Of a stretch of DNA of 1,545 nucleotides, positions 1 to 1,545 are shown piece by piece. Within the stretch, counting starts at the first letter, position 1. Each line of letters opens with the position of its first letter. A program made the translations under genes and the position numbers. Location: NCBI RefSeq assembly GCF_054482525.1, contig NZ_JBTHVG010000001.1; one strand, 5' to 3'. Origin of the DNA: a plasmid. Under the pieces are notes generated by a model that was given only the letters and a program-made list of their open reading frames with translations, did no database searches and had not been told where the DNA came from.

Positions 1-49
1 ATGTGCAAATGTAATACCGTCACCCGCGACGATATTCCGTTTGCCATCT

Positions 50-74
50 GGTCAGGGCTTCGCCCCGACACCCC
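50..74. repeat. Left copy of a perfect 25-bp inverted repeat (ggtcagggcttcgccccgacacccc)
   Basis: Exact reverse complement of 1366..1390, verified base by base; the match stops on both sides. Confidence 0.9.
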
Positions 75-110
75 GCATCAGTGCGTACGTGCTCAATGTG
101 GTTTCCCGTT

Positions 111-172
111 CTCTTCCGCTTCCTCGCCCACTCGCTCACTAACGTTCGGTCGCTGGGGCTGCGGCGAGCGGT
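111..172 (+). other. ColE1-type primosome assembly site (pas/ssi)-like segment
   Basis: Exact 17-mer ctcttccgcttcctcgc (111..127) and exact 16-mer ggctgcggcgagcggt (157..172), separated by 29 nt of related sequence. This matches my recollection of the pMB1/pUC region just downstream of the ColE1 origin, where the spacing is 27 nt. A short ccgcatcag string sits just upstream (73..81), as in pBR322. Confidence 0.6.
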
Positions 173-476
173 GCCACCTCTCGCATGTTGTCGGTGATTC
201 CGCTGTTGTTCTTCTGGGGATGAGTCGTCAGACAGCCCTTCAAACGCGCTCAGAAGCTCTCAGACGCACGAAACGGGATTTAAATGCCCGTCAGGGCATG
301 GAAGGCGCGAAAAACGCTTACAGAGCGTTTCAGGAGGTCAGGCGCGCCGATACCCCTAGCCAGGGGCTTTCAGGTCGCCAGGAACCGCGTCAGCCCCCTG
401 CAAAGCCCATTTGCACGGTACAGGCAGCCACTCGGTTGGTAGGTGGTCGTAGACCGTCGGTGTTACAGCGATGGGG

Positions 477-526
477 GTCTGGGGTTCTCCCCAGACGGTT
501 TCCGGTTGCGCTCAAGGCGCTGCCGG
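477..526. other. Two adjacent strong stem-loops in a GC-rich, probably non-coding region (candidate structured RNA or origin secondary structure)
   Basis: Stem-loop A: gtctgggg (477..484), loop ttct, ccccagac (489..496), 8 perfect base pairs. Stem-loop B: ccggttgcgc (502..511), loop tcaag, gcgctgccgg (517..526), 10-bp stem with one mismatch and one G-T wobble. Further hairpins at 286..297 (gcccgtcagggc) and 312..330 (aaacgct / agcgttt). Confidence 0.45.
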
Positions 527-666
527 AACCGTGGCGGCTCGGTCGTTCTGGAGATCGGGGAGCAAAAACACGCAAGGGATTTTGAGGCGGCAAAAGAGCA
601 ATGCAGGATAGACAATCATGGTCAGAACGTTAACACGTAACCCCTGATTGTCCGCCTGCCGCTGGC

Positions 667-1146
667 TCAATTTGAAAACATGGCCATGATTCGGCGCTGA
701 ATATCACCGTCTTTGTTGACCAGTGTTTTAGTGACAAACGCCGCGTAGTTTTTAGATGTGTTGTATCCCTTCCAGACTTCATGTGGATCGAGTGCATACG
801 CACAAACCTTACCGGCAACAGGAATTCTGACTAACGCGTTTTTTGATTCTAAGTAGTTGAGCCAGCGCTTAATTGTGCTTCGGCTAACACCCAATTTATC
901 TGCTAAAAACTGCTGATCGGCAACAACAGCACCGCATGAGGGATCTATGTGCTCAGCTAAAAACGAGTAAAGCGGTATTGCTACAACTCCCTGCTTGTCC
1001 TTCGACAGTTCTCGGATCCTTTCCCAGCCCTTCTGATAAACCTGGGTGAATGGGCCGTTATTTTTCGGATCTGGTTCCGATTCTTTGTTTAATTTTTCCA
1101 GTTCTTTTAGACGCTTTTTTCGCTGCTCTTCAGTCCCGATATACAT
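667..1146 (-). CDS. Putative winged-helix DNA-binding protein, 159 aa; candidate plasmid replication initiator and/or autoregulator (Rep-like). Family not verified.
   Basis: Complete ORF on the minus strand: ATG at 1146..1144, stop TGA (tca on + strand) at 667..669, in-frame stop upstream at 1174..1176. GGAG Shine-Dalgarno (ctcc at 1154..1157 on + strand) 7 nt upstream of the ATG. The protein has a charged helical N-terminus (EEQRKKRLKELEKLNKESE) and a typical helix-turn-helix with following wing (ADQQFLADKLGVSRSTIKRWLNYLESKNALVRIP). The Rep function is inferred from context (upstream repeats, AT-rich tract, flanking pas-like and oriT-like DNA), not from recognised sequence homology. Confidence 0.8.
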   Translation of the reverse strand: MYIGTEEQRKKRLKELEKLNKESEPDPKNNGPFTQVYQKGWERIRELSKDKQGVVAIPLYSFLAEHIDPSCGAVVADQQFLADKLGVSRSTIKRWLNYLESKNALVRIPVAGKVCAYALDPHEVWKGYNTSKNYAAFVTKTLVNKDGDIQRRIMAMFSN

Positions 1147-1205
1147 GGTAAATCTCCACGGTCTAATGATGGCTCAAATATAAGCCATCATAGCTCAAAC
1201 GTAAA
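1147..1205 (-). promoter_or_regulatory. Candidate sigma70 promoter and RBS for the 667..1146 gene
   Basis: On the minus strand: -35 TTTACG (+ coords 1200..1205), 17-bp spacer, -10 TATATT (+ coords 1177..1182), then GGAG RBS (1154..1157) 7 nt before the ATG. The -35 is a 4/6 match to consensus; spacing is ideal. Prediction by eye only. Confidence 0.4.
1166..1191. promoter_or_regulatory. Perfect palindrome (9-bp arms atgatggct / agccatcat, 8-bp spacer) overlapping the candidate -10; putative operator
   Basis: Arms at 1166..1174 and 1183..1191 are exact reverse complements; the spacer caaatata (1175..1182) contains the candidate -10 of the minus-strand gene. This arrangement is typical of autoregulated plasmid rep or regulator genes. 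The palindrome is seen directly; operator function is inferred. Confidence 0.5.
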
Positions 1206-1222
1206 CCATGATAGGTCGACCT

Positions 1223-1272
1223 AGCTCACACATGCGTGAGCTAACCTTAGACCATGCATGCGTGAGCTAACC
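1223..1272. repeat. Iteron-like repeat cluster: two identical 16-bp direct repeats (catgcgtgagctaacc) 26 bp apart, the first embedded in a 7-bp-arm palindrome
   Basis: Exact copies at 1231..1246 and 1257..1272. Palindrome agctcac / gtgagct at 1223..1229 and 1236..1242. The core agct(c/a)a recurs at 1192, 1223, 1239, 1265 and 1284. Located just upstream of the candidate -35 of the HTH gene and next to an AT-rich tract (1276..1330). Confidence 0.75.
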
Positions 1273-1335
1273 CATAATGCAAGTAGCTAAAAAATCAATA
1301 ACTTACAAAATCGCCCTTAAATATCTTTTCTGCTG

Positions 1336-1365
1336 AAAGTGTTGCGCAAAGCGGAACACTTTTTT
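1336..1365 (+). terminator. GC-containing hairpin followed by a T-run; intrinsic-terminator-like on the + strand, or alternatively an oriT-proximal inverted repeat
   Basis: Stem aaagtgttgcgc (1336..1347) pairs with gcggaacacttt (1351..1362) with one mismatch, loop aaa, followed by further T residues to 1365. No convincing + strand transcript feeds into it, so function is ambiguous. Confidence 0.3.
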
Positions 1366-1390
1366 GGGGTGTCGGGGCGAAGCCCTGACC
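1366..1390. repeat. Right copy of the perfect 25-bp inverted repeat; coincides with the 5' part of the bom/oriT-like sequence
   Basis: ggggtgtcggggcgaagccctgacc is the exact reverse complement of 50..74. Confidence 0.9.
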
Positions 1391-1428
1391 CAGTCACAGA
1401 GCGATAGCGATGTGTATACTGGCTTAAT
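1366..1428 (+). other. ColE1/pMB1-type bom (oriT)-like sequence including the conserved nick-region motif gtgtatactggcttaa
   Basis: Recalled from the pBR322/ColE1 bom region: shared strings gggtgtcggggcg, tgacccagtcac, agcgatagcg and gtgtatactggcttaa occur in the same order and spacing, with scattered substitutions. By analogy the nick would lie in ctgg/ctta at about 1422/1423. Homology is from memory, not a computed alignment. Confidence 0.65.
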
Positions 1429-1545
1429 CATCTGCAAGCCTTGTCAGCCGTGATTTTTGCCAGATTTCGCGCTCTCCACGTTCAACAGCTCCATCATGGT
1501 TTTGCCGTCCGTTCACCGTTAAAACGCCTCAGAAATCGGGACAGG

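Follow-up and report, generated by a model that had tools for sequence, protein, structure and literature searches.

A cryptic 1,545-bp plasmid of the pKL1 family in which a replication cassette and a shared scaffold probably have separate histories

In the IncI1 plasmid R64, oriT is located immediately upstream of nikA. In the basic replicon of plasmid R1, a G-site, which serves as a priming signal, lies between pas sites about 400 bp downstream of oriR. In the small plasmid pKL1 (NC_002145.1, 1549 bp, E. coli KL4), oriV lies upstream of rep and contains an IHF box, Rep-binding sites and an inverted repeat (PMC3832669). The size of pKL1 is also mentioned in PMC12839544; in the literature consulted we found little on pKL1 beyond these two papers, and nothing on the function of the GC-rich block described below. 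Plasmids of 1.5 kb with Rep_HTH_36 and without MOB have been recorded in ST131 (PMC4270462).

The DNA analyzed here (1,545 nucleotides, called the window) is 100% identical to NZ_CP182202.1 from E. coli EC130, a plasmid that has already been sequenced. It is a complete circle: when two copies of the window were joined end to end and aligned with L011, the match was unbroken across 1545/1. Thus, the window is a complete cryptic plasmid of 1,545 bp and a member of the pKL1 / "Col(MG828)" family. Mosaicism in such a plasmid is ordinary and our finding is mainly confirmatory. The window resembles pKL1 in architecture, size and GC profile, and the scaffolds are 90-97% identical. Moreover, the origin layout of pKL1, with the IHF box and repeats upstream of repA (PMC3832669), is found in the window as repeats with a palindrome (1166-1272) and an IHF match (1293-1305) upstream of repA. 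In contrast, the two plasmids cannot be aligned over the N-terminus of RepA, the promoter and the repeats (1050-1350, about 45-55% identity), the repeats being of two different types (CATGCGTGAGCTAACC and GGATGCGACA), and the inner part of the IncI-type oriT (1-45) is a different variant. The features of the window are collected in Table 1. A scan of genome contigs for wider diversity gave, for the most part, nearly identical pKL1-like contigs from assemblies that are unrelated, apparently contaminants, and four chance 20-mer matches.

Table 1. Features of the 1,545-bp window and the evidence for them
Positions	Strand	Feature	Evidence or remark
1-75	-	IncI1/R64-type oriT, main part	92% over 88 nt together with 1533-1545, contiguous across the record start
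1533-1545	-	IncI1/R64-type oriT, nick-region side	alignment runs on through 1545/1
1-585	+	RefSeq 'rep protein' ORF (WP_224706374.1), probably no gene	no coding signal; frame broken in relatives
50-74		25-nt repeat GGGGTGTCGGGGCGAAGCCCTGACC, inverted copy	partner at 1366-1390; one copy per oriT
83-543		conserved GC-rich non-coding block, GC 0.614	86-99% identical across plasmids with differing rep modules
111-172		ColE1-type primosome assembly site (pas) hairpin	82% identical to ColE1 1367-1308
544-668		AT-richer scaffold tail, palindrome 611-652 centred on GTTAAC	common to plasmids with unrelated Reps up to ...GCCGCTGGCTC
667-1146	-	repA, 159-aa winged-HTH initiator, pKL1 family	ORF, HTH_36, pKL1 RepA homology
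669-1361		exchangeable replication cassette (repA, promoter, repeats, AT-rich region)	plasmids with other, unrelated Reps are homologous up to 668, a sharp limit, and again from 1362
1166-1272		iteron/operator-like repeats	21-nt repeats 1166-1221; 25-nt repeats 1222-1246 and 1248-1272
1177-1205	-	promoter-like site upstream of repA, TTTACG-17 nt-TATATT	consensus scan; evidence of position only, not of function
1273-1335		AT-rich stretch, GC 0.30	holds the sole IHF consensus match of the window, 1293-1305
1336-1365	+	hairpin then T-run, right cassette edge	inverted repeat; pKL1 class has a hairpin of other sequence there
1367-1431	+	ColE1-type bom/oriT	91% identical to ColE1 1521-1457

The initial annotation had noted, by eye, a compositional break between a GC-rich scaffold and an AT-richer module of gene and repeats. 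The computed values bear this out: GC falls from 0.586 in 1-640 to 0.443 in 641-1340 (Fisher p=1.9e-7), and both the repA coding sequence (0.444) and the repeats upstream of it (1147-1365, 0.406) are AT-richer, with the minimum of the window at 1273-1335. The drop itself is real, but it does not lie at position 640 as had been proposed. A maximum-likelihood segmentation with two boundaries separated 17-563 (GC 0.618) from the remainder (0.456) with a log-likelihood ratio of 18.7, as compared with 10.7 for the best of 200 shuffles. Because the composition of 564-640 (0.429) is already like that of the gene (p=0.9) and unlike that of 17-563 (p=0.002), the left boundary is placed near 563. Similarly, the stretch 1366-1440, which had been called clearly GC-rich, deviates in the expected direction but only modestly (0.573, n=75), being weakly above 1147-1365 (p=0.015) and 641-1340 (p=0.038). 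The remaining 1441-1545 (0.514) does not differ significantly from the gene module (p=0.17).

Composition was also compared with that of the host, using 547-nt windows from a 50-kb sample of E. coli K-12 (mean GC 0.512, sd 0.033, maximum 0.601). The GC-rich block (0.618) lies about 3.2 sd above this mean and is equaled by no window of the sample. The Rep module (0.44) lies about 2.2 sd below it, and equally low values occur in 2-3% of the K-12 windows. Both thus depart from the host and from the neighboring DNA, and relative to K-12 the deviation of the block exceeds that of the Rep module. The proposal that composition marks the Rep module as the acquired part is therefore not sustained: both modules reassort, as described below, and the direction of acquisition is unreadable from GC. 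The suggested k-mer analysis, run as dinucleotide signatures, did not separate the modules either (delta* 0.126 between block and cassette; 0.123, sd 0.041, between random K-12 fragment pairs), the segments being too short for a powerful test. Nor do the change in composition (about 563) and the recombination junction (about 668) fall at the same position. The GC of the conserved block is 0.60-0.63 whichever Rep cassette adjoins it, that of the cassette genes is 0.27-0.46, and pKL1 shows the same step and profile. In other words, the GC step is the composition of the scaffold against that of the cassette, it is a constant trait of the family, and by itself it cannot prove a foreign origin.

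RepA scores 28.2 bits against the HTH_36 profile (cut-off 25). It is 79% identical over its full length to the RepA of pKL1 (WP_000469298.1), and it is 99% identical to that of a class of 1565-bp plasmids. The variable sites of repA fall 22/15/67 on the three codon positions (154 each), a strong third-position bias (p=1e-13). From homology to pKL1 only, we infer that RepA would form hexamers, repress its own gene and be required for replication. The 25-nt repeats upstream of repA hold the palindrome TAGCTCACACA/TGCGTGAGCTA; the pKL1 class has other repeats at the location of 1166-1272. The window contains no DnaA box within 1 mismatch and no cer/Xer-like site within 12 mismatches, and an ArgR box was rejected on inspection by eye only. 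The single Rfam match at E<1 in the window, a proV match inside repA, was judged to be due to chance.

The scaffold had been described as ColE1-like. This description holds for the pas and the bom/oriT (Table 1), which occur in the window in the same order and relative orientation as in ColE1 (NC_001371.1) (91% identity over 65 nt for bom/oriT, 82% over 62 nt for pas). It does not hold for 1533-75, which is an IncI1/R64-type oriT, nor for 173-543, which has no RNA I and no likeness to RNA II/ori. Moreover, the window possesses neither rop nor mob genes, and the gap between bom and pas, which is about 90 bp in ColE1, is about 225 bp in the window and contains the IncI-type oriT. Replication of the window plasmid is predicted, by homology to pKL1, to depend on Rep. 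The pas and bom/oriT downstream of ori are present but accessory, and they are insufficient for membership in the ColE1-type replicons. Matches to the bom/oriT occur in over 4,000 plasmids, and almost all of these are predicted to be mobilizable. The segment 111-172, which from established knowledge of ColE1 and pBR322 we take to be the n'-pas, shows homology, too, to the pas adjoining a genuine RNA I/RNA II replicon (L009), and its stem shows compensatory changes at three pairs, all from one lineage of 5 sequences.

The IncI-type oriT matches, over 88 nt, a stretch of an IncI-gamma/K1 plasmid whose end is 14 bp upstream of nikA, and 1-75 matches about 1,400 conjugative plasmids. The 92% identity to the IncI1/R64 oriT includes the 25-nt repeat GGGGTGTCGGGGCGAAGCCCTGACC. 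Unlike R64, the window contains neither nikA nor nikB, and this oriT faces the ColE1-type oriT, which bears the same repeat inverted. Because nikA and nikB are absent, the predicted NikAB-type oriT could be used only in trans, with a helper plasmid.

Comparison of the plasmids module by module revealed that cassette and scaffold do not share one history. More than 560 plasmids, with at least 5 different replication modules among them, carry the block at 86-99% identity; at a query coverage of at least 80%, the block was found in 566 plasmids and the Rep cassette of the window in 27. Elsewhere, the block is joined to a 146-aa wHTH protein (22% identical to the RepA of the window), to two RepL-like proteins or to the 95-aa ORF of pMG828-1. 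The same RepA (WP_000469298.1) resides on scaffolds that are 95.7% identical (L002 and L005), and the same 146-aa Rep (WP_000031238.1) on scaffolds that are 94.4% identical (L004 and L001). The scaffold of L002, on the other hand, is 99.2% identical to that of L003, which has a different RepA, and 99.2-99.5% identical to those of L004 and L014, which have an unrelated Rep. In four classes the junctions are sharp: the left one follows GGCTC (668) and the right one precedes TTTGGGGTGTCGGGG (1362). For example, pMG828-1 (NC_008486.1, 1902 bp), the Col(MG828) reference, shares with the window 42-671 (93%) and 1362-1545 (92%). These stretches comprise both oriTs, the pas and the block, and their junctions are those of the window. 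Its cassette, in contrast, is wholly different: AT-rich (0.24-0.44), with a 95-aa ORF without a family match and two 24-nt tandem repeats.

The window itself is a recombinant. Against the pKL1 class, identity is 98-100% over 1-700, falls from 92 to 68% across repA, is about 45% over 1050-1350 and recovers to 84-91% over 1351-1545; against the 1565-bp class, it is 100% over 701-1350 and 66-69% over 601-700. Accordingly, the plasmid carries the Rep cassette of the 1565-bp class together with 601-700 of the pKL1 class. The scaffold tail shows the same pattern: in 544-668 the 1565-bp class differs from the window, the pKL1 class agrees with it, and an 87% copy is found in an IncX4 plasmid. The block is dispensable for RepA replicons, because minimal plasmids with RepA (1240 and 1316 bp; RepA 71-76% identical) possess bom and lack both pas and block. 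In a plasmid of P. aeruginosa, a RepA gene of 71% identity (GC 0.48-0.57) sits in a backbone of 0.70-0.77. Plasmids of different classes also occur in the same cell: isolate IN07 has a 1552-bp and a 1506-bp plasmid, and RHB41-C14 has a 1565-bp and a 1552-bp plasmid. This co-residence in one strain suggests that the window type and the pKL1 type may be compatible. Because the scaffolds of the co-resident pairs are not especially alike (99.0% and 95.5% identical), recent exchange inside those cells is not demonstrated.

The separate derivation of modules proposed in the initial annotation was therefore borne out by incongruent identities and sharp junctions, and neither a lack of GC shift nor modules always co-occurring with the same relationships was found. 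We consider it probable that this pKL1-family plasmid is built of parts with separate histories, a Rep cassette and a shared scaffold, and that the cassettes are exchanged at fixed junctions. One part, at about 669-1361, would be a self-sufficient replication cassette of repA, promoter, iteron/operator repeats and the AT-rich region with the IHF site; like the cassettes of all relatives examined, it is AT-richer (0.30-0.46). The other part would be the scaffold of bom (1367-1431), IncI1/R64-type oriT (1533-75), pas (111-172) and GC-rich DNA (173-543, 370 bp). The simplest route of such exchange would be homologous recombination within the scaffold that plasmids of one cell have in common, although this route is inferred.

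The same composition might arise in a single co-evolving lineage, if the GC difference were purely functional, that is, an AT-rich gene and unwinding region beside hairpin-rich non-coding DNA. The constancy of the GC step across the family and pKL1 and the similar dinucleotide signatures of the modules would fit this explanation, and for the AT-rich 1273-1335 a function-linked composition is plausible. A single lineage is nevertheless highly improbable: the module histories are incongruent, the sharp cassette junctions are common to unrelated Rep genes, and there are RepA homologues without the block and blocks without RepA. We regard it as improbable, too, that the block is a diverged ColE1-type primer-RNA/origin, a second and Rep-independent replicon which would account for its use as the Col(MG828) 'replicon' marker. 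With respect to pas and bom, the block does occupy the place and the orientation of ori/RNA II in ColE1; all plasmids examined with the block were typed Col(MG828) and those without it were not; and pMG828-1 and the 1822-bp class carry the block and no recognizable Rep. However, no RNA I (RF00106) was found at E<1 in the window, while the same search gave 80.8 bits in the true ColE1 replicon of L009, and window 700-76 (minus strand) aligned with that replicon at the pas only (score 78; shuffle maximum 31). The block has no structural covariation, and the consensus scan placed no promoter-like site in it or facing it. Moreover, the 24-nt tandem repeats and the 95-aa ORF in the AT-rich region of pMG828-1 could be the replicon of that plasmid.

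Least probable of all is that the GC richness reflects a real gene, ORF 1-585, whose 194-aa 'rep protein' would be rich in Arg, Gly, Ala and Pro. The frame is open for 194 codons, both NZ_CP182202.1 and NZ_CP060962.1 label it 'rep protein', its product falls in a cluster of 726 proteins, and an open frame of at least 100 codons is kept in most relatives. Yet its variable sites (67/74/64 of 195 per codon position, p=0.55) show no third-position excess, whereas the repA control does. The frame overlaps oriT and pas, is shifted by indels in L004, L005, L009, L027 and L036 and is truncated in pKL1. The product matches no Pfam or NCBIfam family, and its Arg content (27/194) is as expected from translated GC-rich DNA.

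In the conserved block we found no RNA I, no Rfam match, no RNA II similarity and no coding signal, and 173-543, the part which Col(MG828) typing tracks, showed no likeness to any characterised sequence. We tentatively suggest, with some doubt, that the block may be a cluster of cis-acting priming or strand-conversion signals which extends the pas. Such a cluster would come into play once RepA has opened the origin or once the plasmid has entered by conjugation, and the high GC would follow from its richness in hairpins. The order iterons, (oriTs), pas and block is kept in the window and in four relatives (L001, L007, L008 and L042). Plasmid R1 offers a functional analogy only: in the window, a Rep-opened origin would lie about 375 bp (from 1280, through the record start, to 111) ahead of a pas and further conserved hairpin-rich DNA. 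Homology or covariation supports the pas alone, the block alignment gave no compensatory pairs outside it, single-strand folding of 76-600 barely beat shuffles (z -1.8 and -2.5), and the existence of RepA plasmids without the block speaks against the idea.

More specific candidates were rejected. One long Frpo-like single-strand hairpin was discarded on the same folding of 76-600, and a conserved RNA or ssDNA structure on the RNAalifold result (-49.6 and -47.6 kcal/mol for the two strands), in which the covariation terms were positive, that is, unfavourable. A search of a phage collection for an origin of the phage G4/phiX type gave vector-like pas matches only, and small conserved ORFs in the block (for example, 284-442) contain stop codons in L009 and L013. 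Parts of the block are also found elsewhere: 114-331 lies next to the IncX4 origin region, and 295-472 forms 206-nt direct repeats on either side of a ccdAB cassette. It is conceivable, though rather unlikely, that 83/173-543 is a cis-acting element of a new kind, neither gene nor ColE1 primer region, which moves as a unit or in sub-blocks. Its role might be priming, strand conversion or another maintenance function, and it might be essential in pMG828-1-like plasmids without a recognizable Rep.

A strongly conserved non-coding sequence of 370 bp is thus present in hundreds of complete enterobacterial plasmids. In RefSeq, a probably spurious ORF over oriT, pas and block is called 'rep protein', and the real initiator is merely a 'helix-turn-helix domain-containing protein'. 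The widely used Col(MG828) replicon type tracks the non-coding accessory block and not a replication gene. Consequently, this type groups plasmids with unrelated initiators, which are able to co-reside, and misses the minimal RepA plasmids without the block.

The plasmid has been sequenced before: over its full length it shows 100% identity to NZ_CP182202.1, a circular 1,545-bp plasmid carried by E. coli EC130, which came from a pig in Guangxi. The match to IncI plasmid sequence is continuous over the 1545/1 junction, and circular completeness is therefore confirmed. The closest relatives are 1565-bp plasmids (96-98%) and the pKL1 class of 1549-1553 bp. RepA of pKL1 (NC_002145.1) is WP_000469298.1. 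The pKL1 oriV lies upstream of rep and has an IHF box as well as Rep-binding sites (PMC3832669), and the region upstream of repA in the window agrees with this description. The plasmid belongs to the known pKL1 family, as an uncharacterised variant in Rep and repeats. Its features are collected in the table.

Features of the 1,545-nt plasmid (window positions)
Feature	Position	Strand	Remarks
repA	667-1146	minus	159-aa winged-HTH protein; HTH_36 score above the cut-off; 79% identity to pKL1 RepA
Promoter-like site			upstream of repA
21-nt and 25-nt repeats with palindrome	1166-1272		upstream of repA
AT-rich stretch	1273-1335		GC 0.30; sole IHF consensus match of the window at 1293-1305
Hairpin and T-run	1336-1365		
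ColE1-type bom/oriT	1367-1431		91% identical to ColE1
IncI-type oriT	1533-1545 and 1-75		92% identical to IncI-gamma/K1 plasmid sequence whose end lies 14 bp upstream of nikA
pas	111-172		82% identity with the primosome assembly site of ColE1

The initial annotation had proposed that 1-640 and 1366-1440 are GC-rich and that the gene and its repeats are AT-richer. By sliding-window and segment GC, the discontinuity is real: GC is 0.586 in 1-640 versus 0.443 in 641-1340 (Fisher p=1.9e-7). In an unbiased likelihood scan with two boundaries, the GC-rich segment was delimited as 17-563 (GC 0.618; elsewhere 0.456), with a log-likelihood ratio of 18.7 against 10.7 for the best of 200 shuffles. Because 564-640 (GC 0.429) could not be separated from the gene module, the boundary lies near 563 instead of 640. 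The enrichment of 1366-1440 (GC 0.573) is weakly significant (p=0.015-0.038), and 1441-1545 is not separable from the gene module. For comparison, 547-nt windows in a 50-kb sample of E. coli K-12 had a mean GC of 0.512 (sd 0.033, maximum 0.601). Relative to this sample, the gene module deviates by about -2.2 sd and the GC-rich segment by about +3.2 sd; therefore, the latter is the stronger outlier. The suggested k-mer analysis added nothing beyond GC: in dinucleotide relative abundance the two modules are as far apart (0.126) as fragments paired at random from K-12 (0.123). The GC profile of pKL1 is the same (0.54-0.64 in the first 600 nt, 0.37-0.50 in the Rep region). Thus, the discontinuity is a family trait. 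The conserved GC-rich non-coding block (core 83-543) keeps a GC of 0.60-0.63 with every partner replication module, and the partner genes have 0.27-0.46. In the P. aeruginosa plasmid p5 (65% GC; L045, 885-1783), a RepA homologue (71% identical) adjoins an MliC-family gene and has a GC of 0.48-0.57 within a 0.70-0.77 backbone, the rep region being about 20 GC points lower. The Rep gene is again compositionally distinct there and has spread far beyond where the block occurs.

The proposed mosaic origin was examined by comparison of the modules separately. At a query coverage of at least 80%, the block was found in 566 plasmids and the Rep cassette of the window in 27. The block is coupled to replication modules of at least five kinds: the RepA of the window, pKL1 RepA, an unrelated wHTH protein of 146 aa (22% identity), two distinct RepL-like proteins and the 95-aa ORF region of pMG828-1, the Col(MG828) reference plasmid. 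The same RepA protein occurs on scaffolds (block, pas and both oriTs) only 95.7% identical to each other, and the same 146-aa Rep on scaffolds 94.4% identical, whereas different or unrelated Reps occur on scaffolds that share 99.2-99.5% identity. Thus, the modules do not all co-occur with the same relationships, and the histories of scaffold and Rep are incongruent. Four classes share exactly the same two end points of homology to the window, after GCCGCTGGCTC at 668 and before TTTGGGGTGTCGGGG at 1362, and these common junctions define an exchangeable cassette at about 669-1361. At junction 668, two of the unrelated genes have their stop codons no more than 1-2 nt away. The pKL1 class shows a graded, not sharp, left edge: identity to the window is 98-100% up to 700, falls through 92, 88, 82, 74 and 68% along repA to about 45% in the RepA N-terminus and repeats, and returns to 84-91% past 1350. 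The 1565-bp class is 100% identical to the window over 701-1350 but just 66-69% over 601-700, where the window matches the pKL1 class; therefore, the window is itself a recombinant. The same block occurs with different cassettes within single isolates (1552-bp and 1506-bp plasmids in IN07, 1565-bp and 1552-bp plasmids in RHB41-C14), and this co-residence gives an opportunity for recombination. Plasmids of 1240 bp and 1316 bp possess RepA homologues (71-76% identical) and bom without pas or block. Therefore, the cassette is a self-sufficient replicon to which the block is accessory. That the Rep module was the part acquired is not inferable, because both parts reassort.

The scaffold had been called ColE1-like. 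ColE1 homology is confined to bom/oriT and pas, and the label therefore holds for about 130 nt only, not for 173-543 or the IncI-type oriT. The mosaic reading is correct in substance, but was mislabelled and is not derivable from GC alone. The bom/oriT matches more than 4,000 plasmids, mostly mobilizable, and about 1,400 conjugative plasmids match the IncI-type oriT; the site directly upstream of nikA is where the IncI1/R64 oriT lies. A 25-nt repeat is common to both oriTs in inverted orientation (50-74 and 1366-1390). The two oriTs, IncI1/R64-type and ColE1-type, are about 200 bp apart over the record start, on opposite strands. MOB-suite calls close relatives inconsistently, either mobilizable or non-mobilizable, despite the two oriTs.

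Several further observations concern the family. Directly 3' of repA, a palindrome of about 42 bp lies at 611-652 (GACAATCATGG...CCnTGATTGTC about GTTAAC); the 1565-bp class has another palindrome plus 20 bp in its place, and an intergenic copy (87%) is present in an IncX4 plasmid (L012, 1708-1768). A full-length plasmid copy (96.5% identical) is reported within an E. coli chromosome record (NZ_CP146250.1, 1218136-1219708), reflecting integration or misassembly. Tiny contigs with pKL1-like sequence, often at sub-1x coverage, were found by the genome-contig scan (L016-L039) in unrelated assemblies, including Streptomyces, Streptococcus, Clostridium, Bradyrhizobium, Micromonospora, Mycobacterium and Flagellimonas. 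Contamination of laboratories or reagents with small E. coli plasmids is the most likely source.

RefSeq (NZ_CP182202.1) labels an ORF at 1-585 (plus strand) "rep protein", and its protein cluster has 726 members. Among 30 distinct relatives, variable sites were spread evenly over the codon positions of this ORF (67/74/64 of 195 each, p=0.55), whereas repA, tested likewise, gave 22/15/67 of 154 (p=1e-13). Furthermore, the ORF overlaps the IncI-type oriT as well as pas, indels disrupt its frame in several relatives, it is truncated in pKL1, and no family profile matches it. It is most likely an artefact of GC-rich DNA translation. The actual initiator is repA, which RefSeq calls "helix-turn-helix domain-containing protein".

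The block is very highly conserved, with near-invariant stretches over 295-470, and all architectures examined retain the order iterons, (oriTs), pas, block. IncX4 plasmids have a homologue of 114-331 (pas plus the first 160 nt of the block; 81%) about 660 bp upstream of their pir-like replication gene (L012, 3924-4138). In pSTEC640_3 (30.6 kb; L013), the homologue of 295-472 forms 206-nt direct repeats (98% identical; 3977-4182 and 4833-5038) flanking a ccdAB toxin-antitoxin cassette, and the record holds a third copy. The block has no coding signal, and in 173-543 there was neither an Rfam family match nor a promoter-like site. Its folding is marginally better than that of shuffles (z -1.8 and -2.5); no compensatory pairs were found outside pas, and the three within pas all come from a single lineage. 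The tip of a hairpin, CGGTTTCCGG...CCGGAACCG (about 508-520), is inverted in one relative (L017; GCGCTCAAGGCGC to GCGCCTTGAGCGC) with the stem intact, as a palindromic hairpin predicts.

Our leading suggestion, although we would not call it probable, is that the block may be a cis-acting priming/strand-conversion signal extending pas. Such a signal might come into play once RepA has opened the origin or following conjugative entry. Plasmid R1, whose priming site is situated about 400 bp from oriR, offers an analogy and not a test. A less likely reading is that the block is a Rep-independent replicon, based on where it sits with respect to pas and bom and on the existence of pMG828-1-type plasmids without a recognisable Rep. 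However, it is without every sequence hallmark of ColE1 priming: 173-543 did not align to RNA II/ori of a genuine ColE1 replicon and showed no RNA I similarity. In pMG828-1 itself (L042, 461-508 and 1464-1751), the 95-aa ORF has no family hit and is accompanied by two 24-nt tandem repeats in an AT-rich region.

We compared plasmid typing across loci L001-L010, L042-L045 and L050. All block-bearing plasmids were typed Col(MG828), including a ColE1 cointegrate with just 178-538. The RepA plasmids of 1240, 1316 and 2953 bp and a 1542-bp plasmid with only 1-182, all without the block, were not. Therefore, the Col(MG828) marker follows the block, not a replication gene. Unrelated initiators share one Col(MG828) type, and minimal RepA plasmids without the block are given no type.
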